Below, one piece after another: positions 9,503 to 40,124 of a DNA stretch of 64,000 nt (position 1 is its first letter; each line of letters opens with the position of its first letter). Position numbers and translations under genes: made by a program. The notes under the pieces are model-generated. The model made no database searches, had not been told where the DNA came from, and was given only the letters and a program-made list of their open reading frames with translations. Origin of the DNA: Amphiscolops sp. MND2022 (lineage: Eukaryota). The stretch covers positions 67,892,001 to 67,956,000 of the forward strand of contig OZ076409.1 of assembly GCA_964187785.1 (NCBI GenBank). The letters run 5' to 3'.

Positions 9503-9862
9503 TGATTCATGACATGTATATTAAGTTAGAGCAGTGAATGTAAAAAAAATCATTTATGAAACCCTTTCTTTCCCAATGCAAGCAGATATTCAACTATTCT
9601 TGACTTCATAGTATTTAATCGTTCCAGATGCCACTCATGGCCACACGCCCAAAACGTTTTCTAAATTCTATTAAGATTCGCACTGCTACTATACTACTTT
9701 TTGTTCATCTTTACACAGGTATGTCGATGATGTCTAAATCGGAACTGACTGTAAGCAGGCCGTTTCTATCTTATTTCGTTCTTGATAATCTTTTGTTGAC
9801 TAGTAGTAACCGAAAGCTCTTTTCGCAACCAACTCAACAGCTGATAGCAATCAAGTTCCCTT

Positions 9863-10945
9863 TTTAGTCGGCGCTTTTCCATTAAGGGAAAAATGCCCGA
9901 CTATAGCAGTAACTGTTTTTAGTCGGCGCTTTTCTAGGGAAAAGTGCCCGACTCTTACAGTGGCTAGTTTTTTTTCGTCAGACTACAATCTCACTCTGAT
10001 TGGGCCACTTTTCTTACAATCGAAACTACTAAAACTACTAGCATAAGGCCAAGTCCGGTCAGCGGAAATTACTGTAAAAGGGTCCCCCCTTTCATTTTTT
10101 ACTTTTTTACCGTAACCTACAAAACCGGACGAGACTAAAAGGTTCGATTTTTTTTCGGCATTGTGCGGCTTTTTTCGAAAATATTTTAATGTCTCAAAAG
10201 AGTCCCCCTTTCGAGTTTTTTGATATTTTGCAACAGAATATATGTTAATAAAGCCCAAAGGGTTCCCCCTTTTACATTTTTCGGCACTATGTGACATTTT
10301 CTGAAAGAAAAAAAATCAAAAATTACAAGTTTTTTTTTAAAGAGTCTTTTGCGCATTTTGAGCCTTAGATATAGCGCCGACTTTAGACGTTCCCGTCTTG
10401 TTTTTTCTTCAGACTACAATCCTCACACTGATCGGTCCACTTTTCTTACAATCTTAAAATCTTACAATTCTTACTTAGCAAACTTAAAATACTAGCGCAA
10501 AAGCTTGCGAAGTAGTCTTTTTACATCATCTAAGAAACTCAATGGGACCAAAGGGTACTCTACTCCCTTAGAGTATTTTCGGCTCTGTGAGACTTTTTTT
10601 CGAAAAAAAAATTCCCCCAAAGGGTCCCCCTACAATTTTTTTGGAGTTTTCCGACAGAACGGATGTTGAAAAATCCCAAAGGGTCCCCCGTTTTCAGTTT
10701 TTTCGGCATTGTGAAACTTTCTTTTCAAAAAATTTTTTTCACCAAAAGTGCCCCTCCTTCAATTTTTTCTGATGATTTGCCACAAAATGGATAAAAAATC
10801 TCAAAGTGTCCCCTCTGGTGCGCCAATTCGGTTCAACTTTTGAGTTTTTCTGGTACCGTAGGAGAGAATACTTTGACACTTTGAAGTCCTTTTGCTGTTT
10901 TTGAGCCTTAGATATGGCGCCGACTTGAGCCGTTCCCGGCTTGTT
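9863..10945. mobile_element. Two tandem Helentron/HINE(DINE-1)-like non-autonomous repeats (family A); relatives at ~2320-2735, 47858-48425 (inverted) and 52805-53279
   Basis: End hairpin GTCGGCGCTTTTC-tagg-GAAAAGTGCCCGAC, subterminal inverted copy AGCGCCGACT near the other end, terminus CCCGTCTTGTT, internal AAAGGGTCCCC/TTTTCGGCACT repeats, no TSD seen. Confidence 0.55.
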
Positions 10946-12204
10946 TGATCATATATGGACCTATTGATTAAAATGATCCGAACCAATTTTTTTTCAAACA
11001 GTTCATTATGTTGTTAAAAAGATTTTCCCGTTGTTGTATTTTACAGCTTTACTAAGAAGAGAAACAAAGAGAGATAAAATACAAGCTTTTTCTTTACTAC
11101 TATCTCACATACAAAATCGTATGTCAAAAGAATGTATGTAAAACAAGTTCTTTTGAGTTTTTGGTAATCAACTCGAAAGAGATTGTAGACTGTAGACAAT
11201 GGTTACGAACCGAAACTCGCTTCCGTTTCTCGCTTCTAGTAGCGGTCAGGAGATGGATGAACTGAAACGGCGAGCTGTCATAGGTCGTTTAACGCGTTAA
11301 CAGAGATGGAGAAACCTGCAGTAATGAGTGTATCGCTCAAGACAAGCGCGCCTCGCCACAGATCCATTTTGAATCCAGGGGTAAGAAATGTCCCGAGGCC
11401 GTGGGTGCTTCGAGAATACGGTCCAACCGGTTCTAGTTTTTGATTGCTAATAGTAACGTACTTCTTTTATTTGGGTTTGCGGGTCGTACTGTCATAATGT
11501 TCCTTGAGGGGATAGTGCATTACCTTGTTCGACTAGTCTTTGAATTTCCGGACTGTTGTGACGGCAACGAAAAATACACATGGACATTTCACGGATGTTC
11601 CCCAGTGACAAAAAAGTATTCTTGTCCATGGTTTTTTACACTTTCAACTTTTGTCGGCTGGTTTTTAGAGTGCTAAAATTGGACTGCCCGAATGTAGTTA
11701 TTTCGTTCTGTTCGGATTTTTTCACGTTGTTTTACTTCTCGATAATCTACTCGTTTGTGTTTCATTCTTTTTGTACTCAGTTCACGTTTCGGTGATGTCA
11801 TTGTTTGTCTCGGTTTTCCTTCTGTTTCGTTGTAATTGGTCGGCAAATAATATTCCGTATTTCGAGTTCAATTCGGCGTGTTCAGATAATATGGTACTTA
11901 CGGATTTTTATTCGTAATTTTTATGCGGTATGGCTCTCCTAACAGATTTCTACCGATATAATTGGTAATTTTCCAATTACTGCCTGACATATTGACGGTA
12001 TTTAGATGTCAAAACGTGTTAGTGGGTCTAACCATCTTGTTGATGTTGCGCTATTTTAGTTATTCCATCAGTTCTGTTTAATTAGTGGTTTTATTGATTA
12101 GTGTTTCGTGTAGAGAAACACTTTCTTTCCGTATAGGCAAAATAGGGTTTTCGCTAGTCTCCACACTGCCGCTTGTTATTCTTCTTCACCAATGGAACAA
12201 TTTT

Positions 12205-12381
12205 ACTCGGCATAACGTTGTGGTCGAAACAAGAGGCCGGAAATGTAAAACTGATAGCATACGGCGGCAGATATTTGAACGAAACCGAAAAGGCTTTTCG
12301 GTTTCGTTCAAATATCTGCTGCCGTATGCTATCAGTTTTACATTTCCGGCATCTTGTTTCGACCACAACGTTATGCCGAGT
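12205..12381. repeat. 177-bp near-perfect palindrome (88-bp arms, 1-nt centre, 2 mismatches)
   Basis: ACTCGGCATAACG...CCGAAAAG-G-CTTTTCGG...CGTTATGCCGAGT, centred on 12293. Confidence 0.95.
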
Positions 12382-12997
12382 CAAGTTCAACTAGCGTCTG
12401 TTGTTTTTATGATATTCTTGTCCTTCGCATCGATTACTACTTAGGTGCTACATATACTCCAAATGATGGTATAATTCATGGCTGGTGGTTGAATATTGCA
12501 GATACAAATCTTTCTTTCACCAGTTTCGGGGATTCTCACCAAAGAAATTTTTGAGAAAAATGTGTTTATACAGAAACTTTCTGAAGTAACACATTTTTCC
12601 AGGATTTTTCCCAACAAATTTGGGGTTTCTTGGGGGTTGAATTTAGTGAGAAGCGTTTTTCGAGTCTTTAGAATAACTAACCTCTTTAGTTATTTTTTGC
12701 TACTGTGGGACTGATTGGAGTTTTGTCGATAAATGTGGAAAGACCTACGTCAACATGTGCAACCTCTACTACGATTTTTTTTCTCTGAAGGTTTGCTATT
12801 TCATTTTTTGTTATTTTATTTCTTCAAAAAAGGATCACACTGTTGTGTATCTTTTGCACTGTGAGACTTTCTTCGAATGAAATTTATTTGGGAAATATTG
12901 TAAAAATTATCGGCTGCGTTTTCCCAGGAAAGCGCCGACTAAAAACATGTTTACCATACAACAACGTTCTGTCTATTGTATTGTATAACTAAACCTA

Positions 12998-14525
12998 TGT
13001 GATAATCCTCGTCTAGGCTCTCTGCATCAGACTCTTCGTCTGAATGGATAGTTACGTCTACATCAGATTCAGCTCGAAACAAAGGCTTTGCAGGATGTTT
13101 TAGATCCTTCATTCTAGATGCCTTAAGAGGAAAATCTTCGTCTTCAGTTTCTGAATTTTCATTGTTAGATGCGTGTACTCCTATAGACTTGTTTCCTTTG
13201 GATCCCGTAGGTTGCATGTTTCGTGTTTCATCATTTTCAGACCTTGGGTTTGTTGCTATTGAAGCACTTTTATTTGATTCTATTTCTCTGAGAATGGTTT
13301 CAAGTTTGTTGTCCATTTCTTCTCTCATTTTCTCTATTCTATCGTTGTTCTTTTGTTCAAATATTTGGGTCCAAGCTTGAATCTCAGTGCTGATTTGACT
13401 GGGTTCGACTAATTGTTCTCCTATGTTGTTTTCACCTAAATTTTCTTGGACAACAGTATCAGGATTAGTTAAAGTTATATTACCTGTATTTGGCGTTTCT
13501 ACTTGGGTCCTTTCTACACTTCTCTCTGGGGAAGGAGTTTCTAGTCTCCTGGACCGTCTATTTCGTCTATTTCCCATCTCGTCTCAAGTGAAAATGTTTT
13601 CTGGCTTTTGGGGAAGAATTTGAATTGACTTTAATATCTCAAAAGAACAAGATCGGAGAGTTTACAGTGATGAAATCGAAGAGGTTTACAATCATTTGAA
13701 AAGCAACTGCTTTTGGTGAAAGACAAATCTTGAATGAATTCTTCCAATTATTTTACAAAACGAAATATATTTAAAAATCATGACACCCCTTTTTATTAGA
13801 GTCATCATGAAAACCAGCACAAAAATAGAATTGCGTCAAATGACATCATATTATAAAATAGCACATTTACATTACATCATGGGAAGTGGTTATGGACAAG
13901 AAACTGCAAAACCCTGGAAAATATCTCAAAATAACTTCTAAATATGGCCGAAACACTTTCTAAATGCTATTAGAACGCGTCCTGGGATCTTTCAATAATT
14001 CCTGCGAGAACCGCATAATGACGTATAATCGTTCTTACTCGAACCGTAGGATGCCGCATAATGTTATCATAAAAGACGTATAATGCCGTATATACATCTC
14101 ACCTCAAAACGCATAATACCGCATAATGGTATTATCAAAACCGTATAGTGACGAGTATACGTCACACCTTGATCCGCATAATACCGTATAATAGTACTAT
14201 GCTAAAATGCAGATTATCACGATGATGATGATGATGAGTCAGAAACTTGCAAGTTATACTATTAGATGGCGAGATAACTCATTGTTTAATCAACATAAGG
14301 ACTCTTAATGGGAAGACAGGGTTTGTTAGCACAACAATGAAAGTTCTTTCATGGCAAATATAGTATAAATATCATATTTACATGACTTTCTAAAGAAAAC
14401 AATGCACAAGAAAACACACTATCAACGGGTCCACATGAGTTCGAAAGAGTTTATTTAGGAGGTACCGTTGCTTGTTCCTTTCTAGAGTTGCACCACGGAG
14501 CCATCACATCTTGGTGGGTGTGACA
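12998..14525 (-). repeat. 3' LTR (1528 bp) of the large element
   Basis: Direct repeat of 27646-29168; by eye it differs by about 4 substitutions, one 6-bp indel and one 1-bp indel. Confidence 0.95.
14011..14190. repeat. ~32-bp-period CCGCATAnTGnCGyATA array in the LTR (second copy at ~28654-28833)
   Basis: About 6 degenerate units, e.g. CCGCATAATGACGTATA, CGTATAATGCCGTATA, CCGCATAATACCGTATA. Confidence 0.85.
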
Positions 14526-15510
14526 GTCCCGCATTTTTAAAAAGGAACAATGCTGCCTCGGAGCCGTGGATAAAGGCTTTCGACCTGATGGCTCTCTCCT
14601 TGACAGTTTCACCGTCGTACTCCGTGGCGACCAGATATTGTCCAAGCGTCTCTAATGCTATTTGATCGAAACATTTCCCACAGAAATCACAATGCCCTGC
14701 CACATTTGGCATGACCGTTGGTAGTAGTCTTATGCCTTGTCTTTCTTGGGCTGGTATTAACAAGACGTTTGGGCTATGTACCATGTCGAATGGGAATCCT
14801 AGCTGCATGGGTTGTTGCACGACGAACGGTGTTTGGCGGGAACCCTGTGTTGTCTCCTCCAACGGGATTGGGAATAACATTGGGGACAAGTTGAATCCTT
14901 GCATGGTCCTCATGACTGGTTGTTGTGACTGGGCTACATTGCTATGTATTTCGTAGTCCATAGGGTCATTTATGAGCATGCTTTGCATATTCGTTTGGCC
15001 AAGTTCTCTACTGGGCTCCTGTGTAACCATTGGGGTTGGCAAGATTCCTTCTTCGTCTTGATCTTCTCGCACAATAGGTAACACTCTGGCACATGGTCGG
15101 CCATAACTATTTGTATTTAGGGCTGCATCCCTATTTTCTGTCCATGGGAACAGGTTTCCTTCTTCAAATTCACTGTCGATGAACGACGATGGAGAGCCTG
15201 CAGGGTCGTCTTGAGAGTCGTTCATCAACTCTATAAGGTCTTGCTCTATTTGGGTTCCTTCCACACATGCAGCATCACCGTGCCCCGCTAGTACGTTTGA
15301 ACTGGGAAACAGTGTCGCTAATGAAGATCCAACAAATGCTGACATCAGATTGTTTTCTGCCGGATTTACTCTGAATTTCTCTCCCAATTGCGATATGTTT
15401 CCTGGGGCAACTGAGAAGGTTTCTTCTGTCTCGCTGGAGATATCGATGACATCGGGAGATAGAGGAGAGTAAAGGCTATCTTCATCGAAATTGAACTGAA
15501 GCTTGTCCAT
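14482..15510 (-). CDS. Accessory ORF (~342 aa) in the env position; acidic, low complexity, with a C-terminal HCDFCGKC motif; function unknown
   Basis: Uninterrupted ORF from ATG 15510 (MDKLQFNF) on the same strand as gag-pol; the stop lies about 44 nt inside the 3' LTR; no signal peptide or TM segment is visible. Confidence 0.75.
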   Translation of the reverse strand: MDKLQFNFDEDSLYSPLSPDVIDISSETEETFSVAPGNISQLGEKFRVNPAENNLMSAFVGSSLATLFPSSNVLAGHGDAACVEGTQIEQDLIELMNDSQDDPAGSPSSFIDSEFEEGNLFPWTENRDAALNTNSYGRPCARVLPIVREDQDEEGILPTPMVTQEPSRELGQTNMQSMLINDPMDYEIHSNVAQSQQPVMRTMQGFNLSPMLFPIPLEETTQGSRQTPFVVQQPMQLGFPFDMVHSPNVLLIPAQERQGIRLLPTVMPNVAGHCDFCGKCFDQIALETLGQYLVATEYDGETVKERAIRSKAFIHGSEAALFLFKNAGLSHPPRCDGSVVQL

Positions 15511-16331
15511 TTTTTCAAAATTATTCAAGTTAAAATTAATGGGAGAATTATTTTAAGTATCAAGTTATCAGTTTGTGAAAGGCAGCCGAATTTCAGATTG
15601 ATTAAGACCATATGGTGGTTGATTTTCTTCTCCCTTCTGTTTTTGACAAAATCCCGCGGAAAAGTTGAGAGTCATGCTTTTTCGAGTCCTCCGTTCCCCT
15701 TATAAGGGCTTTACTAGGAGTCATGTCATGAGACTCACTTGCAATAACTCATAAACAATTTCCATAAAAGGTGTTTTACTTAACACATCATCGGATTGCC
15801 GCTCATCACTTGGATTTCCGACAATTTCCAGACAGTTAAATGATATATAAACAAAATTCAAGGGACATCAAAGTAAGTAAATGCCTCCATGAAGATATTT
15901 ATTGAAAAGTTGGGAGAAAAACTTTATCTAATCTTACATGACTAATTTTATGAAATGATGAAAAGAGTTATGAAGCATGTTTCACTTTTGATTAATAGCA
16001 CAGCTAAATCGACCATTAATTCCAAGAAAAACATGTGTTAAACTTGGTCGCGCATTTGAAAAATGCGTGTGGGGTGATGGTTTGACGTATAATTTCCGGT
16101 TCTGACAATTGTTTCTTTTTTATAAGCTCCCGGAACATTATCAGTTCGAAATTTACTAAATGAACTAAATTCAACATAAAGCTGACGTTGTGATTAAGCA
16201 TCAACAATATCACACGTGTTTATCATTGAGAGTGTTTAATTTTCTTCATAATATTACGTAATACTTCTTTATATGTTCAATTCCAGCCACGAACTGCATT
16301 AATTCATCCTATTAAGAATATGCAGCGAGAA

Positions 16332-16575
16332 CCGCAGGATGACGAGTATACGTCACTGCAGGAACCGCATATTGCCGCATAGTCTTCCTTTGCATTCCGC
16401 ATACTGCCGCATACTCTTCTCTTGCAATCCGCATATTGCCGCATATTCTTCTCTTGTACTCCGCATACTGCCGCATGCTCGTCTTTGCTCGATCCGCATA
16501 CTGCCGCATATTCTTCTTCTGCAACCCGCATACTACCGCATATTCTGCGTTTGCAATCCGCATATTGCCGTATAC
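16332..16575. repeat. Tandem array of ~8 x 32-bp units with a CCGCATAyTGCCGCATA core and variable ~15-bp linkers
   Basis: Directly visible; the first unit shares GCGAGAACCGCA and GACGAGTATACGTCAC with the LTR array. Confidence 0.9.
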
Positions 16576-16599
16576 TATCAGCCAAAACAATATCTATGC

Positions 16600-16680
16600 T
16601 TAAATTAGCCATTGGCGTTATGCAATGAGTCAATCAATCACGCTGGCAGACGTGACTGACATTTAATTAGCCAATCAGAT
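16600..16680. promoter_or_regulatory. Candidate promoter elements between the divergent accessory genes (CCAAT boxes in both orientations, TGAGTCA)
   Basis: ATTGG at 16611, CCAAT at 16671, TGAGTCA at 16626, repeated AATTAGCCA. These motifs are short, so function is only inferred. Confidence 0.35.
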
Positions 16681-16965
16681 TTCAGTATCTACTTTGCATA
16701 TTTGCGCAAGTTTATACCATTTGCTTTTTGCCTTTCTTTGTTACGTTACGCCACGCCTTTTGTTTCGATTCATCGCCTTATACGAATTATCGTGTAGTTA
16801 GAGTTTTGTTAAAGTATCGACTCTGAACTTGCAATTATATTCTCCATTTCACCCTCTCATTACTCTAGAATTTGTCCCAAGTTCGTTTACAGCTTTTGCA
16901 ATTTACACTCCACTTTTCCTTTTCAATTTGCTTCTTTCTTCCTCTTACTTCCTCTTTCTGGAGAA

Positions 16966-19900
16966 ATGGATTCGCCATCCGGGGCTGAGCGATCAGGAAA
17001 ACGAAGGTCTCGTAAGGACCAAGCCCCGCTTCACCGCAGATTTGGAGGCAGAGATTACAACCCTTCCTTTTGGTCAGATCCAGGTAAATTCAACTTTTGA
17101 TTGGTTCAATCCGATTTAATTTGTTTAAAAGGTTTAGATTTTCTCGTGAAGCTGGCCAGGTTTGTCAGAGCGTGTGATCTATGTATATGATAGATCGGAT
17201 TCAGATTTTTTGAAACGTTTCCGTTTCTAGTTTGTAAGCGACTTCCGTTCTCTTCATTTCCTGTAACCGCGTCCGGTTCCGGTTGATTTAGAACAGAATA
17301 AGCTAGCTTTTGAACCACCGATTACCTTATCGTAATAAGTCCTTTGTTTCAGTTGAACCTGAAGTAGGAGAGTCATCACTGACACCTTCACCTGCGAAGA
17401 CTTACACGCCCTTACATTCCTCATCACCTAAAACTCTTTCTGCCCCTGTTGTGCAAGAATCTCCAGCTATTGTCCCACTACAAATTGATGAAGGGATCGC
17501 TGTCGTAACTGAACCAGAGCTACCATTAACTACCATCGCTCCGACTACTCTACAGGATCCACAAAAGACTCTAGAGGCGGAAGAAAACACTGCTGATCAG
17601 GACAATCCAAGCTTAAACGAAACTCCCACTGGAATGATGGAAAATAACGAAGCTGACTTAGGCCGGGAATTGCTGGAAGAATTTATTTCTCCCAGATCTA
17701 GTCAGGTAGCCTCACCCCTTCTTAATCAATTCCTCGCTACGGCCACTAATGAAAGTCTAAGCCAATTCATCAGAGCTGACTTTAACCTGGCTCAGGCTAG
17801 TGAGCGACTTAACACTCAACCTCCTGAACAAATGGAAATTCCCTCGACCGAGGCCTCTCAACCTGCGTGCACTCGGGCCAGCATCAGTGTCACCAGACGA
17901 GAAATTCTGACCATCAGTAGCTTCCTGGAACGAATTCCGCAAGGGTACGTGACAAGGGAAAGAGGCGATTGTGATCAACCGTTGACACTTATGGTTGGTG
18001 ATGCGACAAATTCTGCCCCTATCACTGCAACATCAAGCCAAGAAGAAGCAGGAACGAGTGCGCTAACTGGAGTACCTGCCTTGGAATTACAAGAAGAAAA
18101 CATGGTTAGAAGTGGAAAACGTCGTAGGCCAAAATATTCCTTGACCAGCGCGATGTTCAAAAAACATCCAGTGATAAAGTTTTCAGCGACCGGCCCGCTC
18201 GATAAGGACAAGACCCCTCACAAGTGGTGGTGCAGGGTGTGTAAAGTTGAACTGTCTCTCATGAGTCGGGGGAGTTTGGAATTAGTATCTCATTATCGCA
18301 CCGAATCTCATTTACTGAAGGAACACCGAATGAGGATGGAAATAGCGGGATTAGCCTTGTATGACAAGAACGAAAAAGAGCTTTTGGGGGTGGCACTTCA
18401 GGATGCCAAGAAAAAGGCCAAAGACATGTACCCCATTGCTCCACAATTAGATGTCTGCCGACCTCTCGTAGGACAAGATGTTGTACCTGATTTCAGCGCG
18501 GTAAAAAGTCCTACAGAGAAAATTTTGTCCCAAATAACTGTTCTCGAGCATGGATTGAGATATGGTGGGCATATCAACAGTTTGACATCAATGTACGATG
18601 AGCTAGCTCGGATTGCCAGTAGCAGTCACATGACAACACAAAACTGGAGCCCTCAGCGACTTTTCGTTAGTGATTTCTTGCTGTTTCTTTTATTGCTGGT
18701 CAATTTAAGAGTCTGATATTTTTTCTTTCTGGAACTAATTTTGAGTCTGAAACTATATATTTCACGTTTGAGCCTTAAGACTAACAAGTTTGTTTATTTC
18801 ACAGGCTATCCTTGTACACATGTTTCGGGAGCTAATCAGCTACTGCGTCACTGCGATCGCCTCTTCGGGGTTTTATTCCTTGCGTTGCAGCAGACTCATA
18901 CAGCGTCTTTCCTCATCCTCAGCTTCTGGTCTGGGAACGTGTTCCATAGAGTCTGTTTGGGTTGTGCTCCCCGCGGAATGCTGCTACCCATGAAGATTCT
19001 CAGTTTAACGTCATCTTTTCTCAGCCTCTTTGAGACGGAGTCAACTTGTCTGTCACTTGTTGACTTGGGTGACAAATTGGGCGATTGCCTATCTACTTGT
19101 CTTCCCGGGAAACAGCCACCGACAGTTGTCAAGACGTATGGACCTGATGAGTTCGAGAAAAGTCTCTCCCTTCCAACCTCACAGATTATAGAGCGCCATG
19201 ACTACAGAGCTATCTTGGATTATCTGCTGATGAAACTACGTACAGCACTTGACAAAGATTGGCTGCAACAAATCCCCGTGTTGCACAAAGTAAAATACTT
19301 ACTTGTGATTCACTCCTAGGGTTCTGTATACTTTCGTTTACTTTTATTGTTTCTGTTTCAGTGTGTAGTTCGTTTGGAATACTCCCTTGAAGATGCCTCC
19401 GCCATTATCGAGCATCTTTCAAATAATTGGAACCACGTTCGTGATCATCTAAATCACGTATCACGACTCCCTGTATACCGGTTTCATATGCGCGAGGTTA
19501 TTGTCTTTCCCATATTCACTATCTCCTCTTTAAATTCACCGTATCTTTTGTTCATTTCATTCTTTCATTTCAGCCGAACACTTTAGATGAGTGTTTTCGT
19601 CTCGACACAACGTATCTAGCACGTCTCTTCGTGATTCGTTGTGTCCTTGATCACTGTTAGTTATTTCCTTTTCTCAGTTTACAATTAATTTTGCTTCCGG
19701 CCAAAAATCAGAAATCTTAAGCTCGGTTATATATCAATGCGTTCTAATGGATTTCTCATGGGAGTCTCTGTGAAAATACGAGACCAAAGCTCATCTTTGG
19801 TAAAATTGTTACATCTTTTGTACTTCTATCACAGTTTTCTTTTGATTCGTATCTGCACTCATTCTAGTTTGTGAGTGAAAATAAGCCGCCTTCTACTTTA

Positions 19901-21434
19901 TTTCTGTGTTGCAGCAGTCTCTGCATAAACCGCATAATGACGTATAGTCCATCCAGCGATTCCGCATAATGACGTATTGTCCATCTAGCAATTCCGCATA
20001 ATGACGTATAGTCCATCTAGCAATTCCGCATAGTGACGTATAGTCCATCTAGCAATTCCGCATAGTGACGTATAGTCATCACACCTCGAACCGCATAATG
20101 CCGTATAATCTGCTTAGTAGTTTCGTACACTGCCGTTTAGACGTTGCAGCCTGTTCCGTAGAATGACGTATAATTAGTTCCGCTTGTTCATGTTTATTTC
20201 TTTGAATCTCGTACGTATTATTTGACACGTGTTATGTATCACATCTAGTAGTTCAGACTGTCCTTCAATTATGTTGTTTCTGACTTAATATTGTACTTAT
20301 CAAGAATTTTAATTTATTGTGTTTTAGATAACTCGGCCTTTTCGGAAGTTCGCAAAGGAGTGGAAGGAGGGTTTCGTGCCTTCAACCAATTTGCTGTATT
20401 CATTTACAGTCAACTCCAAAGCATTTTACCAGATGAAACTCTTGGAAACATCTCTGACTGGGACAACTTCTTGCAACTGGATCTCACTCAGGACAGCCTG
20501 CCGTTCAAAACTGCGGACGAATATGTATTGAATGAAGACTTCTACCGATTAGTTTCAGCAAGTAAACTGCCTCGGCCGAGCAAATTTGTGAACCAATCAA
20601 TTTGCTTCAGTAAAACCTTTTGCAAGTCACTGATGGGGCATGAAAACATCAAATCCAAATTGATGAGAGGGTTATCAGCTTTTGATCCTGCTGTGATGCT
20701 CGATGGTACCGAGGCTAATTATACAGTTGCTATCGAGGATCTTTCTAGTCATTTTGCTTCTATTGGATTGATTTCTTCTAGCGATCGAGTAAAAATGGTC
20801 AGCCAGTACCGAGCACTTGTTACGAAATTCCGCTCAGGGACTGGATTGGAATATGATGACTGGATACATTTCATCTCTTCGCATCACGAGTTACAGTGTC
20901 GGCCTGAGCTCTTTCTTTTGTACAAATTTGCTTGTTTGTGTTTGCCCCCACTAGTAGAGATGCCTACTGAATTTGTAGTCCCAATGCCAGCTTTAGGATC
21001 CAATGAGGAGACCTTCCAATCTTGTGTAAAAAGTTTGCAAATGTCATATTCCACTATCCCACATGTGTCTAGCTTATACCGGGACCCAAGATCTGTTAGT
21101 CGAGTTTTTCGTTTGTTGGGGCGTGGTTCTGATTTATTAACAGACAAGAAGTTTTCGGTATGGAACTTCTTTAAAGGAAGTGGACCCCGAAGAGCCTCCA
21201 TGCTGGGAAAACTGGAAATTGATATCGGAAGGCTGTTTACGCCATGAAAAACCGGTGGTTTCCTCGAACACTACTACCCCAAGTGTCAGTCGCACTAGTA
21301 GTGTTAATAGTACTCCGTCCCCGGACCCAGCTTTGAGCAGAGTCAGTGTCCCTGTCAGTCGCTGTACTGGATCGTCTCTTGAAAGTGATCAACCGAAGGC
21401 GAAACCCAATTCCGGCAAAGGCAAAAAACATTGA
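16966..21434 (+). CDS. Spliced antisense cargo gene, ~1100 aa, hAT-transposase-derived Zn-finger protein. Exons ~16966-17083, 17353-18665, 18805-19289, 19362-19496, 19574-19655, 19722-19799 (tentative), 20328-21434. This copy has apparent frameshifts and a stop.
   Basis: GT-AG introns with matching phases. Zn finger WWCRVCKVELSLMSRGSLELVSHYRTESH (BED-like type found in hAT transposases). IASSGFYSL sits where hATs have FSxxxDE. The C-terminal GLSAFDP...W...PELFLLYKFACLCLP resembles the hAT dimerisation region. Apparent 1-nt frameshifts near 18878 and ~21220-21240, and a TAA at 19745. Confidence 0.7.
19930..20172. repeat. Third array of the same 32-bp repeat family (CCGCATArTGACGTATAGTCCATCTAGCAATT), inside the last cargo-gene intron
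   Basis: About 5 near-identical units plus 3 degenerate ones. Confidence 0.9.
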
Positions 21435-21660
21435 TTGTCTGTTGTAGTTATCAATTGCTATGTTTTCTTTTGTTGTGTTTACTTTATGTTGATACATCCA
21501 GTGTATTTATTTGGATGATTCTTGGTGTATTATTGCTACAAAAACGAGAAACAAACTCATGCACTGAGGTGCACTTCAAAAATAGAAGATAAGAGGAGAA
21601 TTTCTTTGCAGTTCTTTTTATTATTATAGGTAAGGAGAGTCAGAGTATAGAAGTTGTCTT

Positions 21661-24600
21661 TTAGTATCTGTATGTGTCAGAGTAGTTTGGGTTAGGATTT
21701 GGGCGCAAGTTGTATTTTTCACCACGAGTCTTTATGGGTTCTTCTTGCAATGGGGTATTTTCAGGAATTTCTGGGGTTCTTTGGATATCAATTTCAGGTG
21801 TGATATTTCTGTCTTTTTGGGTTTTTTGTGGGTAATCTGTCACATGATCACGGGTTTCTTGTGTATTTCCATTGCTCGTTTCTCTTTCAGGTTCAGTGGT
21901 CTGTTCCACTGGGCTCCCCCGCTATTTTTTGAAGATCCAGGGGAGGGAGGGCGGTTATCATCAGGTGTTTGAATCGGGATGTATTCGGTATCGTCATTAT
22001 TCTGTGAATATTCTACTGGATCATCGTCAAACGGGCTAGATCCAAAATTCGTGTTCCACGATTGGGCATATAGGTCATCATTTGCTATTGGGATTTGATC
22101 ATCTTTTTGCCAATCGGTTTCTCGGACAAAAATGTCTGCTAAGGGCGCTTGCGGAGTAAATTTGCGCAAACGAATCCTGTGAAGTAGTTGTGTTTTGTTA
22201 GTCCCTAGTCTCCTGACAATATAATTATTGTTGGGGAGGACTTTTTCAACTTTATAAGGACCACACCACCTAAATTCTCGGAACGGTATTTTTGTCGCCT
22301 GAGTGTCAGCCTTGGGATTCAGAATGTAACAATAATCCGTCGTTTCGAGCGGTGCTGCTTTCGCTTTGCGGTCATAGTAGGCTTTGTATTTAAGGTAGGG
22401 TTGCATGATGTTCTTCTTGGTTTGGTCTAGAAGTATTTTCATGCGTTTTTGAATTTCCTCTGCTATGTCAGTTTGCGGTGGGTATCTTGGATTGGGATTA
22501 TATCCAAGTTTATAGTCAAGAATATTATGTGGTATCCGTCCATGGAAAACTCGTGAGGGTTCGCAACCTAGTGACGCATGGTATGTCGTGTTGTGATTAA
22601 GGACTGCAAGAGGAAGATATTTATGCCAGTTGTTCCTAAATTCGCCTGTCGCGGCTTTTAGGTGTGTTTTTACTGAGGCATGTGTTCTTTCTAGGAGTCC
22701 TATTGTTTGTGCATGTTTCATTGTAGCGTGTTTCAGTTCTATTCCGAGTACTGCTGCAATTTCATGGGTTATTTGTGCATTGAATTGTGTGCCCAGATCC
22801 GTGATTATAGTTGTTGGGAGATAAGTGTGTTTGCATAATATATCCATAATGACTTTCGATACTGCTGTCGCAGTGATGCGATTCACAGGATAGGCAAACA
22901 AGTATCTTGAGAAGACATCTATTGCCGTGATGATATGATCGTAGCCTCCACTGGGGGGAAGGTTGGGCAAAATGTCCATCTGCAGGATGTCTTCCGGTCC
23001 AAGATCCCATTCTGGACAATTAAGGAGTTCGGTTCTGAGGAGGTCATTGTTAATGCGTTTTGTTTGGATGCAAACTTGGCAGTTACTAACCCATTTCTTG
23101 ATGTATTTAGCCATACATGGGTAGTAATATTTTTGGCGTGCTTCTTGAATCATCTTGGTGATTCCTGGATGGTTTGAGTTATGGCCATGCAGGGCCTGAA
23201 GTAGTTCCTGGAGAAGTTGTATTGGTAGGAGGATTTGGTAATGAGAGATAATTCCTGTGTCTGTATAGTATTTTCGTGTGAGAACTTCCTGTTTAATCTC
23301 GATTCTGGTAATGTTTTGTAGATAATGTTGGTATCTGTAATCAGATGCCAATTCATTTTCGTCAAAAGGGTTACCTTCAATTTTTGCTCTGAGATGTCTA
23401 AGAACTACGTCATTGTTTTGTTCAAGGCGAATTCTTGCGTTGTCCTTGAAGTATCCAGAAGAACAGGAGATTAGTCCCGATGTGGGCCTGTGAAATTGTT
23501 GGAGTTCAGAGATGTTATTCTCTGGTTCATTGTGGGTTTCTGTTTGTGCCTGGTTTCGTATGTTTTGTTTTTCCTGCCATAATTGATTTTCATCAATTTC
23601 ATCTTCAGGGAGAATATAGATTTGCTCTTCCTCGGCGATTCCAGATGACTGGATATTTACCTCAATTGCTTTCGTGTGAATGTCATTGCGAATTGTTAAT
23701 TCTAGTTTTTCTGTTGGGGCGACTTCTGTCCTTGATAGGAAGTCTGCAGCAGTATTCATTGAGCCAGCGACATGGGCAATTACAAAATTGTATTGTAAAA
23801 CGTAATCGCATGCGTTCCAAAGTGCTGGTGGGATCATTTTCGTTTGAAAAAACCGGGTTACTGACCGGTTGTCAGTGAACACGATGACTGGGAATTTGCT
23901 TCCCCACATGAGGTGTCCAAATTCGACGAATGCAAAATATATAGAAAGGAATTCTTTCGCATAAATTGACATCTTCGTCTGTGTTGGGTTGAAAGTTTTT
24001 GAACCAAACGCTATGGGTGCATATGTTTTGCGTCTGGATTGGAGTTTTTGATTCGGATCGTCTTCGATCATGATAGCGTATCCTGCTGCAGTGAAACTTG
24101 CATCGGACATGACTATGAGTTGTTTGTTCTTCAATGGTTGTTTCAAAGCTAATTGGCAAGAGATTTCCAAAAGTTTGTTAAGGTTTGTGAATTCTTCTAC
24201 CAAGTTTGTTGGTACATAGAATTTGGAAGTTTCTTTGAGGAGTTTGAAGAACGGGGATAGCCGTTCTGAAAGGCGTGGTATATAGTTTCGGTAATAGTTT
24301 AGGAATCCAATATACCTTTGTAGTGCCTTCTTCGATTTTGGAAATGTGAGTTTTGCGAGGAAATCTTTTACTTTGTCGGCCTGAGGGGCAACTCCATCTG
24401 GTGTGATGGTGCGACCCAGGAAATCGACTTGTTTAACTCCAAAATGACATTTGGACATGGAAAGTTTTAATCCAGCGTTTCTGATACATTCAAAGACGGT
24501 TTTGATGTTGATGTACAATTGTTTTGTGTCGTTTGCTGCAATGCCAATGTCATCAACATATTGGGCACATTGGTCAGCTTTGATTGCTCTGTCCAGGTAT

Positions 24601-26543
24601 TCCCTCATGAAGCTTGAGAATGCAGAAAGGGATCGGCTGAGGCCCTGAGCAAGGCGACGATAAGCAAATGTTCTGCTTGCGAAATTGAAAGCAAGCATCT
24701 GGATAGATTGGTAATCTGCCATTTGAAGGCAGTGGTAAGCTTGAGAGCAGTCCAATTTGCAGAAAAGTTTTTTCCCTGCCATGTGTTGGGCTGCATCGGA
24801 TAATGTGCTTACCGGGTGGTTATTGTTGACATAATCTTCAGTGATGAGATTATTAATTTTCCGGAGGTCTACAAGGAGCCTAAGGCGCCCATTAGGTTTG
24901 CGCTGTGCAAAAATTGGGCTTGCTTATTTGGAAAATGGTAAGGTTGTTATTATACCATATTTATGTAGGAGCGCAAGTTCTACTGTGATGTCATCTTTGA
25001 GGTTAATGGGAGTCGGTAAACTTTGACTATAAGCTGGTCTGTCGTCATTTGGCGTTAATTTCACTTTGAACTCGCGGTTGATCCCTATATCAAAGCGATG
25101 TCTGGCGAAAATGTCGTGGAATTCGACCAGGATCTCTTCAATCTCTTGTCGTTCTTCTGAACTAAGTGTTGTATCTGTCCAGTCGAAATTTGAGAGGAAT
25201 GTTTTCCTGGATGTTTCATTATCATGTGGGTTCAGTTTTTCGAGTTCTTTTAACTCAAGGAGTTCGTTGTATATACGTTGTTGTATTGGAGTATATGTTG
25301 CGGGATCGCCTGGGTCTTCCGGGGTAGGAAACCAGTACGATTCTTGTTCAGAATTTGGTTGTGGTACTTTGAGGAGTTCGTTGATGTACACTTCCGTAGT
25401 TTCCTCTTGTTGTATCATGAAAGATAGTACTGGTGGGTCTACGGGTTGGATGTGTTTGATTTGTTCGGGGGTGAGAATTTTAAAGTCCGCTAGATGGGTG
25501 TCAAGGGTTATTGTATATGGCAATTCCGAAAAATTGATGATTTGATACCCGATAGCAATATTATTGACTGTGCTGAGTGATGCCGTAATAATAATACTAT
25601 CATGGTTTTCGAATTGTTGTGATGGGGTAACTATTCCGGTTGCATTATGATCCATCAAATGTGGCATTTTACTTACTATGACGAGTGTTTCACCTGGTCT
25701 TAGAGTATAGGTATTTTCTGCAAATAATGGTGTTGCTTGCCGTATTGCTGGTTGTGTGTCGGGTTTGAGTTGCATTGAGAGATAAGGAAACGTTAAGATT
25801 CCTTGTGTGACATCAAATATGGCATTGTTTCTACGAAGGAAACATAATCCGATTAAGGGGTTTGGTAGGTTTTTCATAATGATGAAGTTTTCTTTTAACA
25901 TGAAGTCTGCGACTTCGAATTCTAGTAATACTGTACCAATGGGGACTTCTAGTTGTCCATTTGCCACCATAATTTGGAAGTTTGGTGGAGGACCGGTTTC
26001 TTTAATTGCTTCATTTGCGAGCAGCTTGATTTTGTTGAGGTCTTGTTCGGAGATTGCACTTGTGAGAGCTCCAGTATCGATAAGACCATCAAGTGTCAGT
26101 TTTTCGAAGTCCATCGGTATGTAGTACATGTGTCGTTTTCGCTTCAATGTCAAAGAAGTTGAAATTGGGAGAAATGACACGTTTCGTTCTTTGTCAAATT
26201 GTATGTGTTCGGTGAGGTCTTCACTTAATAGAGGTTGTTTTTTATCATCGCAAGAAGTGTTTATGGTGACATAATTTTTAACGGGGGAATTGTGGTGAAT
26301 ATCGGGTTTTGAGTCAATTTCGGGGTGGGTTTGTTGTTTGATGAAGTAGTTGTCCGGTGAATCACGGAGGAGTTCGTCTTCAGTGTGGTAGTCGGTCAAT
26401 GATTGTTGAGAAGTTTCTGTTATCAGGTCTTTTTGGACGAGTGTTGCTTTTGTGGGTTTTGGGCTCAACTGATGCTGCCAGTCATCAGATGAGTTTGGTT
26501 TTTGTGGAGATTTTTTGTAAAGGCGTGGCGTTTCTAGTTTAAA
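21661..26543 (-). CDS. pol: pol (protease, dUTPase-like insert, RT, RNase H, integrase) with an in-frame TAA at 24924-24926 and a 1-nt frameshift near 21915
   Basis: LIDTGA protease; TTLPFSK*ASPIFAQRKPNGRLRLLVDLRKIN reads through the stop in frame; YVDD; RNase H SDAS...KE...TDN; integrase H-H-CQVC, QMD...TDLG...LLER, GPY motif. Confidence 0.92.
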
Positions 26544-28219
26544 TCCTTCGATGAGGATTGTTGAGATCGTTCTGATTTTGGTCTGATTGGTTTTTTGGCT
26601 TGTTTGTATTCTTCTATAATTTTCTTTTGTGCTTCTGTCAGGTTCCATTTCGGTGGGCGGTTTTCCATATTGGCTCCGAAGTAACAGTTTTCCTCATCGT
26701 GACCAGGTGTGTTACAGGTGTGGCATTTTTCCGCATCGGGGTCTTCCTCAAGTTTGCGCCGTTTAGCTAATTTGGAGCAGTCAGCCATCATGTGGCCTGT
26801 TTCCTTGCAGTAACGGCATTGATCATTCTTGAGGGTTTTGTCTGGTACTGTTTTTGGTGTTTGTTTTTTGGCTTTGTCATTTGGTTTTTTGTTAGTTTTT
26901 TCAGTGATTTGTTCTTTTTTTGTAACAGTCATTTGGGTTTTGACGAGAGGTTCGTCAGCCTCTAGACCATTAAGCTCCATTTCTCGTTCGAGATGCTCAA
27001 CAATTTGTTCGTAAGTGCCATTTTCAAGATAGGCTTGATTGATGAACTTTTTAAGATGGGGAGGCATTTTTGCGTAGAGTAGGTTCTCTATCATTTGGTG
27101 GGCGTTCTCCCCAAACGCTTTTTCAGCACTTTCTGGGAGTTCTTCTAAGAAATCCGGGAGTTTTTGGTGTTCTGGGTCAAATGAGAGTCTGTTGAATCTG
27201 TGTTTTGCAGAAGCACTGGACTCTGGTTTGACATATTTCCTGCGAAAGACTTTGAGTATGTCTTCTAGGGTTGTTGTTGGTGTCCTTTGTATGTTTTTAA
27301 ATGTTTTGAGGGCTAAACCTCTGAGGTGGGCATGAAAATGGTTAATCTTCATGTCCTCTGTTAGGTTTGGTTGCATTCGAAGTGTTGTGTGAAACAAGTC
27401 TTCGAAGTATTCGAATTTTTCATTTTTCTCATTTTTTCCATTGAAGGTGAGTGTATTTTTGGGATGAAATAGTGATGGTTGTGAATTTTTGTTCGCCAAT
27501 TTCTCTATTGCAATTGCAATTTGATTCACTGGGTCAGGTGGTTGTGTTGTCAAATTTGGTAAATTGAGGTCTGCGTGGGATCCAATGGTGTCGTTTGATT
27601 TTTGAGAACTTTGTCTATGGAGTTTTCGGTTGGCTCCTGTCACCATGTGATAATCTAGGCTCTCTGCATCAGACTCTTCGTCTGAATGGATAGTTACGTC
27701 TACATCAGATTCAGCTCGAAACAAAGGCTTTGCAGGATGTTTTAGATCCTTTATTCTAGATGCCTTAAGAGGAAAATCTTCGTCTTCAGTTTCTGAATTT
27801 TCATTGTTAGATGCGTGTACTCCTATAGACTTGTTTCCTTTGGATCCCGTAGGTTGCATGTTTCGTGTTTCATCATTTTCAGACCTTGGGTTTGTTGCTA
27901 TTGAAGCACTTTTATTTGATTTTATTTCTCTGAGAATGGTTTCAAGTTTGTTGTCCATTTCTTCTCTCATTTTCTCTATTCTATCGTTGTTCTTTTGTTC
28001 AAATATTTGGGTCCAAGCTTGAATCTCAGTGCTGATTTGACTGGGTTCGACTAATTGTTCTCCTATGTTGTTTTCACCTAAATTTTCTTGGACAACAGTA
28101 TCAGGATTAGTTAAAGTTATATTACCTGTATTTGGCGTTTCTACTTGGGTCCTTTCTACACTTCTCTCTGGGGAAGGAGTTTCTAGTCTCCTGGACCGTC
28201 TATTTCGTCTATTTCCCAT
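26534..28219 (-). CDS. gag: gag (561 aa) with two CCHC knuckles; starts inside the 5' LTR
   Basis: CRYCKETGHMMADC and CHTCNTPGHDEENC; capsid-like core FNGKNEKNEKFEYFEDLF; overlaps the pol frame. Confidence 0.9.
   Translation of the reverse strand: MGNRRNRRSRRLETPSPERSVERTQVETPNTGNITLTNPDTVVQENLGENNIGEQLVEPSQISTEIQAWTQIFEQKNNDRIEKMREEMDNKLETILREIKSNKSASIATNPRSENDETRNMQPTGSKGNKSIGVHASNNENSETEDEDFPLKASRIKDLKHPAKPLFRAESDVDVTIHSDEESDAESLDYHMVTGANRKLHRQSSQKSNDTIGSHADLNLPNLTTQPPDPVNQIAIAIEKLANKNSQPSLFHPKNTLTFNGKNEKNEKFEYFEDLFHTTLRMQPNLTEDMKINHFHAHLRGLALKTFKNIQRTPTTTLEDILKVFRRKYVKPESSASAKHRFNRLSFDPEHQKLPDFLEELPESAEKAFGENAHQMIENLLYAKMPPHLKKFINQAYLENGTYEQIVEHLEREMELNGLEADEPLVKTQMTVTKKEQITEKTNKKPNDKAKKQTPKTVPDKTLKNDQCRYCKETGHMMADCSKLAKRRKLEEDPDAEKCHTCNTPGHDEENCYFGANMENRPPKWNLTEAQKKIIEEYKQAKKPIRPKSERSQQSSSKDLN
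26537..26543 (-). other. -1 ribosomal frameshift slippery site U UUA AAC
   Basis: gag ends GAT TTA AAC TAG; pol continues in the -1 frame (GGA TTT AAA CTA GAA). Confidence 0.8.
27634..27645 (-). promoter_or_regulatory. Primer-binding site TGGTGACAGGAG (tRNA-Leu-like), within the gag coding sequence
   Basis: Directly abuts the CA end of the 5' LTR and begins with TGG; one mismatch from TGGTGTCAGGAG, the complement of a metazoan tRNA-Leu 3' end. Confidence 0.75.
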
Positions 28220-29168
28220 CTCGTCTCAAGTGAAAATGTTTTCTGGCTTTTGGGGAAGAATTTGAATTGACTTTAATATCTCAAAAGAACAAGATCGGAG
28301 AGTTTACAGTGATGAAATCGAAGAGGTTTACAATCATTTGAAAAGCAACTGCTTTTGGTGAAAGACAAATCTTGAATGAATTCTTCCAATTATTTTACAA
28401 AACGAAATATATTTAAAAATCATGACACCCCTTTTTATTAGAGTCATCATGAAAACCAGCACAAAAATAGAATTGCGTCAAATGACATCATATTATAAAA
28501 ATAGCACATTTACATGACATCATGGGAAGTGGTTATGGACAAGAAATTGCAAAACCCTGGAAAATATCTCAAAATAACTTCTAAATATGGCCGAAACACT
28601 TTCTAAATGCTATTAGAACGCGTCCTGGGATCTTTCAATAATTCCTGCGAGAACCGCATAATGACGTATAATCGTTCTTACTCGAACCGTAGGATGCCGC
28701 ATAATGTTATCATAAAAGACGTATAATGCCGTATATACATCTCACCTCAAAACGCATAATACCGCATAATGGTATTATCAAAACCGTATAGTGACGAGTA
28801 TACGTCACACCTTGATCCGCATAATACCGTATAATAGTACTATGCTAAAATGCAGATTATCACGATGATGATGATGATGAGTCAGAAACTTGCAAGTTAT
28901 ACTATTAGATGGCGAGATAACTCATTGTTTAATCAACATAAGGACTCTTAATGGGAAGACAGGGTTTGTTAGCACAACAATGAAAGTTCTTTCATGGCAA
29001 ATATAGTATAAATATCATATTTACATGACTTTCTAAAGAAAACAATGCACAAGAAAACACACTATCAACGGGTCCACATGAGTTCGAAAGAGTTTATTTA
29101 GGAGGTACCGTTGCTTGTTCCTTTCTAGAGTTGCACCACGGAGCCATCACATCTTGGTGGGTGTGACA
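27646..29168 (-). repeat. 5' LTR (1523 bp) of the large element
   Basis: Direct repeat of 12998-14525; flanked by the PBS internally and the TSD externally. Confidence 0.95.
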
Positions 29169-29909
29169 ACCTATTTCACCTACCACTACATATAACTTTT
29201 CATGATCTGTATGTTTTTCGTATCCAGGTCAACCCGGAAATTTTTTAATTTTTCCACGTTGTCCAATCTGTGCAAAAACACCGAAAAACATTCTCCCTAC
29301 TCAAATACAGCAGAATAAATACGGATCTATTTGAAATAGTTGTTTAGCTACATCAAAACTTTAAGATCGAAAGGAGTTCCTAAAACGTTCAAATATCGAC
29401 AATCGATGGTTTTCGCTACTTCATATCATGAATGTCATGTAAAGGTTTAGAATGGAACACTGTGTCAAGGATGTTCGTTCGACGTACTCTACCATGACAT
29501 ACATATTACACTTTCCGAAAATATTACTTTTTGTATTTTTTAAAACTCACTAAAGAAACTGGCTTTTCATTCCGTTTGGCATTTCTTGCAACTTATCCCG
29601 ATACTCTTTGCAGACCTTGCAATAGTTCGCAATGATAGATTCGATCATTCCTATCTGATTTTGAATGGCTTCTTATCCAGGTTTAGAAGTTTTTTTACGT
29701 GTTCCTTTGATTGTAAAATCTAAGGCACGCCTAGCTTCAAAACTTCCCTGCTCATAAATGGTATTTCGATGCCCAGCTCGAAAAACAATGCATATCTTTT
29801 ATAAAGGAGACGCACCTCATTACGCAATAAATCACGAGGCAAAAAAAACAATTAAAAATAGATTAGATTCTTTAAAAATAACTACGTAAGGTTAAAAAAT
29901 AAAACTGAT

Positions 29910-38900: not shown

Positions 38901-40124
38901 GGTCCAGTCCGGTTCCAATGAACGGTTTCTGATACTGTGCTTCAAAAACAGAACCTGAGGTCGTATCGTGGTCTTCAGGGGGAATGAGAGATTCTTTCCC
39001 TTTGATAGAGCCCCACGTTGCAATTCCAATTGTGACCACCTGGTGCCTTAAATATTGAAATTATTTTAATACGGTTGATTCCGATTGAACTTTATCGAGC
39101 TTCGGTCTAGACATTCTAGCAAGTTGTTTACCAACAAACTTGAATGATAAACGACATTTTGTATCCATTGTTGAATATAGTTTGATACAATACAGTTATA
39201 TAGAAGAGACTGTTATTTTACAATCCTTGTTCTTTCCTAACTTAGCTTTAGAATATGACTCATATTAGCCGGATAACTGGAATTTTTATAAGTTGATTTT
39301 TCTATACTATGCGGCGTATTTCTTAATTTTGTTTGCGCTATGAGATTTTTGTGAGTCAACGAACCTGTGTATTTGATACGAGTTTTCTCATTACACTATT
39401 GGTCAGAAGTTTTATTGAGCTTGGCTGCATAGTTCTTACTTCCACAATAGCCAAAATTGGCTCAAGCGAAAACTAATATCACTAACGCTGAATTTGTCGA
39501 CGAAGGCGAAGATGTTGACGTAAGCAGCTGATCTCTCACAGCCTCCCCACAAATCTTCATAATTCCCGCATTGGTACCCCCCGTGATCACCCAAGCGCCC
39601 TTTGTTGCTGCAACTCTTTGCAACCCTTGTCGCAATCTGTCATGGTCCTTCTTCTTCATTGCGAAATCAGCGGCTCCTCCTGTGACCGAAATAATCAGCG
39701 AAGGTTTCGACAACTTCCATCGCATGTGAAGCAGTTCCACCAGTTGATTGACATCAACGTCATCGTTTATCCTTATATATGGCGAGTTGCTATTCATTGT
39801 GTCTTGGTTTTTGAACCGAATATTCCCAAAACATCTCCATTTCGTTTTCTTCGTGCATGCTTTTGAATCCCATTTCTCAGCCCACGATTTTTTCTGGACT
39901 TCGACAGAATGCTCGTCCACAGGCAATCCACATTGACATGAATTGGTTCCCTTAACGTTGCAAATTTGGTCACACTCTTTTTCGTAGAAGTACTGCTCGT
40001 TGAGTCTCGTTTTGGCCAATGCTGCGAATTTCCTGGAAGCCTCCGGTCTCTGGTTTGCAAAGCGTAGGCCACCAGTATTAACTTCTGGATGCACCCGGTT
40101 TGAGTTTGATTGCCCGTTTTCCAT
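29910..40124 (-). CDS. TRPM-family cation channel, paralogue 1. Exons 40124-39487, 39046-37080, 34119-33907, 33581-33423, 33126-32745, 31664-31521, 31299-31184, 30934-30797, 30094-29910.
   Basis: MHR1/2 motifs (KPSLIISVTGGA, AWVITGGTNAGIMK, LDPNHTHFIFAD, VEGGPGT, DGSGRGADVLA), LLWNRDDMA, S4-S5 LGPKIVMI, S6 NVLLLNLLIAIFN, TRP box YWKFQ, LPPPF, C-terminal coiled coil. All introns are GT-AG with matching phases. Confidence 0.92.
30155..30636. mobile_element. Helentron/HINE-like repeat family B; near-identical copy at 63354-63858, related segments at ~2155-2310, ~4100-5620, ~46980-47070 and ~49400-51160
   Basis: Begins AACAAGACGCCCGC; subterminal ATTTTCCGCCC is inverted to GGGCGGAAAAT in a terminal hairpin (ATTTTCCTTTCCCATATGAAATATGGGCGGAAAAT); internal GGGGTCATTTT repeats. 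Confidence 0.55.

Follow-up and report, generated by a model that had tools for sequence, protein, structure and literature searches.

The window analysed in this study, a stretch of 64,000 nucleotides from Amphiscolops sp. MND2022 (assembly GCA_964187785.1, contig OZ076409.1, positions 67,892,001 to 67,956,000 of the forward strand), carries a full-length Ty3/gypsy long terminal repeat (LTR) retrotransposon of 16.2 kb (12998..29168 of the window, minus strand), delimited by TG...CA termini and flanked by a target duplication of 5 bp. In the interval from pol to its 3′ LTR, the element holds two accessory genes. One, ORF-A, runs in the sense of gag-pol; the other, here referred to as the cargo gene, is antisense to it and likely represents, as sequence comparison and structure models suggest, a whole hAT transposase in disabled form. 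The same element harbours four arrays of one phased bipartite DNA motif, and we tentatively propose that they might serve as binding sites for the element’s own cargo protein.

The 5′ LTR (27646..29168, minus strand; 1523 bp) contains the gag start codon (28219), and the 3′ LTR (12998..14525, minus strand; 1528 bp) differs from it by 4 substitutions and 2 indels. The gag product (26534..28219, minus strand; 561 amino acids) is capsid-like with a zinc knuckle, both scoring below Pfam cut-offs, and pol (21840..26693, minus strand) encodes protease, reverse transcriptase, RNase H and integrase, interrupted by an in-frame stop at 24924-24926. The order of Pfam domains, from gag through protease, reverse transcriptase and RNase H to integrase, is that of gypsy elements. 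The copy in the window is young but broken, for besides the stop in pol the reading frame of the cargo gene is interrupted twice (near 18870-18882 and near 21230). Since about 190 gag codons lie within the LTR, the 3′ LTR holds a second, truncated gag frame; the gag portions of the two LTRs occupy 27646-28219 and 12998-13577, and the truncated frame of 208 amino acids forms its own cluster of 40 sequences. No Rfam match was found in 12000-30000 and a tRNA search returned nothing; a sigma-70 promoter scan, irrelevant to a eukaryote, gave results at chance level.

The arrays together comprise 28 units, 22 of them distinct, all on the plus strand and all built on one 17-bp bipartite core. Array 1 (14011..14190, plus strand) has 6 units spaced by 33, 32, 33, 32 and 33 bp. 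It sits within the putative U3 of the 3′ LTR and, read on the minus strand, precedes a TATA-like site (13855) and an AATAAA (13797) by about 155-335 bp. An identical copy (28654..28833, plus strand) is present in the 5′ LTR, where it precedes the gag start by 435-615 bp, none of the differences between the LTRs falling within the array. Array 2 (16332..16574, plus strand; 8 units) is located between the divergent starts of ORF-A (15510, minus strand) and the cargo gene (16966, plus strand), with TGAGTCA at 16626 and CCAAT at 16671 on its 3′ side, and array 3 (19930..20172, plus strand; 8 units) lies inside the predicted intron 5 of the cargo gene (19656-20327). A lone half-site is found upstream of ORF-A (16083..16091, plus strand), and two units (14141, 16332) feature an inverted half-site. 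The same four arrays were recovered by Tandem Repeats Finder (TRF). All 19 intervals in the three distinct arrays measure 32 or 33 bp, and the mean period of 32.3-32.6 bp corresponds to 3.07-3.10 turns at 10.5 bp per turn.

Among the 22 distinct units, 7 of the 17 core positions are invariant, both CpGs included, and the conserved columns are clustered (permutation p = 0.0005). Identity between arrays is 0.76-0.78 in the core versus 0.39-0.41 in the linker, random pairs giving 0.34. In 5000 uniform-rate simulations matched to the observed identities, star-shaped and evaluated on a core defined from the same data, the number of invariant columns had a mean of 0.47 and a maximum of 5, compared to the 7 observed. 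A model trained on two arrays assigned 18.0-27.2 bits to the units of the third, except for one unit at 10.9 bits, and the best score of the same model outside the element was about 20 bits among 95,626 positions. The initial annotation had delineated the arrays with their bipartite core and period of about 32 bp and had assigned them to a single repeat family: the 17-mer matches described below, TRF and the spacing all agree with the former, and the core identity of 76-78% together with the scoring of the held-out array bears out the latter. Shared ancestry of the array flanks, suspected by eye, was rejected after all 6 flank pairings showed no significant likeness.

Searched with up to 3 mismatches, the 17-mer has 30 matches in the window as compared to 0.56 ± 0.69 in shuffles (largest 3). 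The element accounts for 26 of these, all on the plus strand, and for every one of the 12 exact matches; 4 are situated outside. The outside near-matches inspected all belong to one dispersed AT-rich repeat family and so are not independent of each other, and within the window neither the second half-site nor the 32-bp period was detected at any outside match. The second LTR element (54722-60108) has no 6-mer repeated more than once at a lag of 32-33. In the initial annotation the motif had not been noticed outside the element; within the window this holds for the phased bipartite form but not for the shorter stretch of core positions 4-13, which recurs beyond it. The AT-rich family (2157-3060, 9860-10950, 36190-36400, 42186-42557, 47878-48430 and 52580-53280) exhibits an internal unit of about 100-130 bp, in which core positions 4-13 are followed by an A run replacing the second half-site.

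A two-unit phased pattern was found at 16 metagenome loci, 13 of which (L001, L003-L007, L009-L014, L016) represent one bacterial dispersed element of about 200 bp with 4-6 copies of a bipartite 17-bp core nearly the same as that of the retrotransposon arrays, a 32-33-bp period and variable linkers. Around the array, L001 is the same as L012, and L007 is the same as L011, L013 and L014; the element is also present in L018 (a Terracidiphilus metagenome-assembled genome), and its several unrelated gene contexts include the 3′ side of a ubiD-like gene, the vicinity of a tRNA-like stretch and the neighbourhood of toxin-antitoxin-like genes. Its likeness to the retrotransposon arrays is probably convergent. 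In viral contigs the real hexamer yielded 2 loci and the four control hexamers 0, 3, 0 and 0, which makes look-alike arrays compatible with chance in collections this large. A link between the retrotransposon arrays and their bacterial look-alikes was set aside based on missing protein likeness and on these similar control counts. The loci L008/L017/L019, L020, L015 and L002 are further, unrelated arrays whose units of 10-11 bp are built on the same half-site; two of these arrays lie at viral contig ends.

The cargo gene (16966..21434, plus strand) is predicted to consist of six GT-AG exons (16966-17083, 17353-18665, 18805-19289, 19362-19496, 19574-19655 and 20328-about 21434) with about 1080 codons in total, whereby homologue alignments back exons 2, 3, 4 and 6, and exons 1 and 5 are placed solely by splice signals and phase. 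Exon 2 codes for roughly 250 acidic, Ser/Thr/Pro-rich residues, together with a basic patch and a finger of the C2H2 type; the basic stretch, the BED-like finger and the helices that follow span 18096..18665 (plus strand). Among 52 aligned sequences the finger ligands C46 and C49 are invariant, and H66 and H72 are conserved to at least 90%. Exon 3 (18805..19289, plus strand) shows a strand/helix pattern that we tentatively take to be the hAT RNase H-like core. On the column assignment assumed here, conserved acidic residues are absent at the two expected catalytic positions: the column read as the first Asp has Q in 21 of 29 sequences, and the one read as the second position has G in 20, D in 6 and N in 3. 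Near the third position, where the register is uncertain, there are acidic columns with D in 51 of 58 sequences and E or D in 40 of 58. Loss of catalysis is tentatively predicted for the cargo protein. The last exon (20328..21244, plus strand) specifies a helical domain that is similar to hAT transposases in their C-terminal half.

Assignment of the finger to the BED type involves one transitive step. Pfam gives no match to the protein of the window itself, and P0204, which is 35% identical to the query over 118 amino acids, passes the zf-BED model (22.0 bits at a cut-off of 20.6) as the only one of 43 relatives scanned, two more being sub-threshold. With the structure model of the finger (predicted local distance difference test score, 86), Hermes ranks first among 235 Foldseek rows (E-value 0.92) and the BED domains of ZBED1, ZBED3 and ZBED2 appear at ranks 5, 10 and 26; neither Hermes nor a BED domain is among the 50 matches listed from a wide VIA search. 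For the last exon, 24 of 30 Atlas language-model feature matches are hAT-dimerisation clusters (score 0.93-0.94). In VIA-align its model places Hermes tied first of 48,161 chains (162 residues aligned, root-mean-square deviation 8.6) at a Z of 5.0, which is within the range of common helical arrangements, and residues 1-228 of the model are colinear with Hermes 368-596 in the longest alignment among those listed. Foldseek gave no match to the last exon at an E-value of 0.001 and no Hermes among the rows shown. No match resulted from PDB-sequence profile searches with three alignments, none of 914 candidates passed a long-protein search with the finger region, none of 319 pattern matches was confirmed in a metagenome scan for cargo relatives, and exon 3 had no usable match in Atlas or sequence searches. 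No convincing terminal inverted repeat bracketing the cargo gene was seen among the 25 longest of 70 pairs, decayed ends being possible. Because the two gene ends independently point to the corresponding ends of Hermes, derivation from hAT is favoured despite hits that are individually non-significant. The initial annotation had the cargo product as a Zn-finger protein and its finger as BED-like. The finger was corroborated by P0204 and the Hermes/ZBED rows, and the description of the protein is now extended to that of a probable whole, disabled hAT transposase.

ORF-A (14482..15510, minus strand; 342 amino acids) ends inside the 3′ LTR. Its protein combines an acidic, variable N-terminal part with a near-invariant C-terminal domain of 75 amino acids having an H-C-x2-C-x2-C motif, and it is full length in 12 of the 15 cluster members listed. 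Among full-length siblings, residues 1-267 carry 53 distinct substitutions and residues 268-342 carry 5.

Both the cargo gene and the arrays are traits of the element family as opposed to a single copy, as sequence clusters indicate and as the initial annotation had them. Clustering at 90% groups 29 gag, 31 ORF-A, 24 exon-2 and 26 last-exon sequences. From 19 cargo contigs listed, at least 9 share their length label with listed gag contigs and at least 14 with gag or ORF-A contigs, these counts being lower bounds from 15 members listed per cluster and the cargo-gag linkage covering the closest subfamily only. Array 2 is crossed by a spurious reading frame for which there are 9 member sequences; 8 of them are on contigs bearing those gag, ORF-A or cargo labels. 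More widely, relatives of the last exon form at least 115 clusters at 46-99% identity (manual summation gives about 800 sequences, all under one source label), and the finger exon has 214 relatives. Conservation spans the whole body of the cargo protein beyond the finger, and the gene is mostly intact across the family. The loop before the predicted recognition helix occurs in 30 forms among 67 sequences (LMSR in 18, LKTK in 10), a diversity among subfamilies that could provide raw material for co-variation of motif and finger.

Based on the collective evidence, we consider it quite possible, if short of probable, that the arrays are binding platforms through which the cargo protein regulates the element’s promoters in trans. 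The cargo protein would have kept the finger and the oligomeric body of a transposase, and its BED-like finger would bind the arrays, one finger per half-site, such that an oligomer would read paired half-sites at a distance of one turn, and units at a distance of three, along a single face of the helix. Arrays 1 and 2 might then work as upstream elements for the promoters of gag-pol, ORF-A and the cargo gene, the N-terminal 250 residues, acidic and rich in Ser/Thr/Pro, would be the activation region, and a positive loop would be closed; broken copies, the one in the window included, would be served by intact siblings. Binding of cargo to array, oligomerisation and direction of effect are what we infer in this scheme, and activation or anti-silencing is favoured over repression solely by analogy with VANC, TnpA and the AtMu1 transposase. 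The further notion that the lineage domesticated the transposase as a private transcription factor, with finger and array co-diversified into lock and key in each of more than 100 subfamilies, so that a class I element would have recruited a class II enzyme and an animal counterpart of VANC/TnpA would exist, is rather doubtful.

Several observations weigh against the proposed regulation by the cargo protein. The BED site of Hermes is a palindromic AAGT pair and not a direct repeat at 10 bp (PMC10368747). The hAT ancestry is built from matches each of which is below significance alone; Pfam returned no family for the five cargo frames of the window, nor anything hAT-like in 58 sequences of the last exon or 29 of exon 3, and the Z from VIA is of a size that helical arrangements commonly reach. 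Significance of the array conservation is overstated by the star shape of the simulation and by defining the core on the data tested. In 8 sibling copies of array 2, varying codons are distributed as 5 of 40 in the core and 6 of 37 in the linker (Fisher p = 0.75), in a comparison made via the spurious reading frame, with low power and confounded by unit swaps; this one independent test gave no indication that the core is constrained at such depth. Replacement of a unit in 2 of these siblings and an extra unit in 1 imply that the arrays turn over as ordinary tandem repeats do. Core positions 4-13 are met at 10 sites beyond the element with 0.39 expected, as might be anticipated for a host-factor site, and the two-unit metagenome loci bear no protein likeness to the retrotransposon, so the motif can arise without such a protein. 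The absence of CpG depletion also counts on this side. The observed/expected ratio of CpG versus that of GpC is 0.93 versus 0.99 for the window and 0.82 versus 0.91 for the element, with no clear methylation footprint, and the 3 C/T differences between the LTRs all lie outside CpGs. The methylation-sensitive binding suggested in the initial annotation gains no support here. A literature search on DNA methylation in acoels gave nothing specific.

Other explanations have to be considered as well. The arrays could be multimerised enhancers that answer to a host transcription factor and were copied out of U3, once to the promoter of the accessory genes and once to the intron, with the cargo protein acting otherwise. 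Sites in U3 and in the divergent promoter do adjoin CCAAT and TGAGTCA, the core positions 4-13 turn up in an unrelated dispersed repeat, and TGACGT, which we take to be a half-site of the cAMP response element (CRE) type, is found on either strand inside 9 units. Array 2, however, mostly lacks TGACGT while core and phase are kept, and neither in the 47.8 kb beyond the element nor in the second LTR element does the motif occur in its full bipartite phased form. We judge the host factor unlikely. Distinctly unlikely are neutral tandem expansions, possibly relics of the donor hAT’s subterminal repeats that were spread by duplication and conversion. They would explain the unit swaps and copy-number change in 8 siblings without core-over-linker bias, the derived inverted-half-site unit common to arrays 1 and 2, and the like architecture obtained with other hexamers in viral contigs (0, 3, 0, 0 versus 2). 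What they leave unexplained is that between arrays the linkers are near random, yet the cores and the 32-33-bp phase persist at 19 of 19 intervals; the lack of a convincing terminal inverted repeat around the cargo gene, among the 25 longest of 70 pairs, also speaks against them.

Binding by the cargo protein might alternatively be structural, with an oligomer bridging LTRs and internal arrays for end pairing, nuclear retention, insulation or targeting. Transposases of the hAT type oligomerise and read several subterminal repeats together (PMC10368747), the whole protein body is conserved and not the finger alone, and one array is deep within an intron; but a distance of 335-515 bp separates the LTR arrays from one end only, the other being about 1 kb away, and two of the three sites are in promoter positions, so that little likelihood attaches to this role. 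We hold it to be no likelier that ORF-A, a candidate binder missing from the initial annotation, takes the place of the cargo protein. As a sense accessory protein it occupies the place that trans-activators have in retroviruses, its N-terminus is acidic, its substitution pattern singles out the Cys/His C-terminal domain as near-invariant, and array 2 is upstream of ORF-A also; at the same time, neither a family in general nor a DNA-binding family or solved relative was found for it, and its C-terminal domain is without a marked basic stretch. Highly improbable is an action of the arrays in RNA as packaging, dimerisation, export or splicing signals. It would explain the single orientation of 28 out of 28 units, but folding was no better than in shuffles in all 4 tests (z of -1.13, -0.90, 0.11 and 1.17), Rfam has no match in the element region, the 5′ LTR copy is upstream of the inferred transcription start, and the 10- and 32-bp spacings suit the DNA helix.

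Regarding mechanism, regulation by the cargo protein is closest to VANC and TnpA. As in VANDAL transposons, an element-encoded accessory protein goes together with a short motif arranged in tandem within terminal, intergenic and intronic non-coding DNA (PMC5735166), and such arrays are indeed present in the non-coding parts of the window element. The comparison with VANC, already drawn in the initial annotation, is supported since VANC21 binds motifs in introns and in intergenic and terminal regions, where the tandem repeats targeted by VANC are located (PMC5735166). Related VANDAL families diverge (PMC5735166), and here the finger loops do. VANDAL is a plant DNA transposon, however, and VANC removes DNA methylation, in contrast to a window without CpG depletion; motif binding was demonstrated for VANC, whereas that of cargo to array is predicted (PMC5735166). 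VANC also originates from MAIN-like proteins and not from hAT (PMC13547354). With Spm TnpA and AtMu1 the cargo protein would share the character of a transposase-derived, sequence-specific regulator of cognate copies: TnpA is transposase-derived, the AtMu1 transposase activates cognate copies, and the domesticated forms have lost catalytic residues (bioRxiv 10.64898/2026.08.24.746577). These proteins serve DNA transposons or the host, unlike the retrotransposon carrier proposed here, and the words LTR and retrotransposon are absent from the main text of that source (bioRxiv 10.64898/2026.08.24.746577). Hermes (PDB 8EDG), whose BED domains bind phased subterminal repeats cooperatively, offers the likeness of an N-terminal BED-like finger, a predicted C-terminal helical region and multicopy phased sites (PMC10368747). 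The cargo differs in having direct-repeat CpG half-sites instead of AAGT palindromes (PMC10368747), in being carried between LTRs, in the lack of terminal inverted repeats found and in non-acidic residues at the first two catalytic positions on the alignment assumed here.

Regarding architecture, the closest systems in print are the plant Retand (Tat) elements Retand, Grande and RIRE2, in which antisense ORFs are predicted to be DNA-binding in 97% of clusters and tandem arrays are present in about half (PMC11963269, PMC7264820). The two Retand papers report that the antisense ORFs resemble no other transposons, and they leave open both the origin of the antisense accessory genes and the role of the tandem arrays (PMC11963269, PMC7264820). 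The window element differs by its animal host, by its spliced cargo gene of about 1080 codons with BED/hAT-like character and by having the motif also in LTRs and an intron. TRP28 (PF04195), used as the test for Retand, had no Pfam match in the five cargo frames or ORF-A; the element is a member of gypsy and, on that test, not of Retand. Complex retroviruses likewise have accessory genes between pol and the 3′ LTR that act on repeated U3 elements (Tax, Tas and the antisense HBZ); no env was found in the window element, in difference to them. In the full-text literature covered, most subscription papers lying outside it, no hAT-derived gene in an LTR retrotransposon with cognate arrays is reported.

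What the window adds is an antisense gene with a recognisable likely origin, a finger of the DNA-binding type and a candidate site defined to the base. If regulation by the cargo protein is true, transposon-encoded self-regulation extends from plant DNA transposons to animal retrotransposons. The 115 or more protein clusters could then constitute a natural finger-to-motif code within one genome.

Other features of the window surround the element. An inverted repeat (12199-12387) with 94-bp arms, 96% complementary and separated by a 1-base loop, lies 600 bp from the end of the retrotransposon. The second LTR element at 54722-60108 (plus strand) is also Ty3/gypsy, with identical 206-bp LTRs, one frame of 1558 codons and no cargo-sized gap. 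A frame at 37063-39060 (minus strand) encodes a TRPM-family channel with SLOG and TRPM2-like domains and, together with the spliceosomal introns, points to an animal host; as background, acoel genomes are described as LTR-rich (PMC9911081). Repetitive DNA further includes a degenerate array with a period of about 186 bp (49900-50930), a 114-bp duplication (61726-61956) and, at 30155-30637 and 63348-63857, a roughly 500-bp dispersed repeat that contains units of 19 bp.

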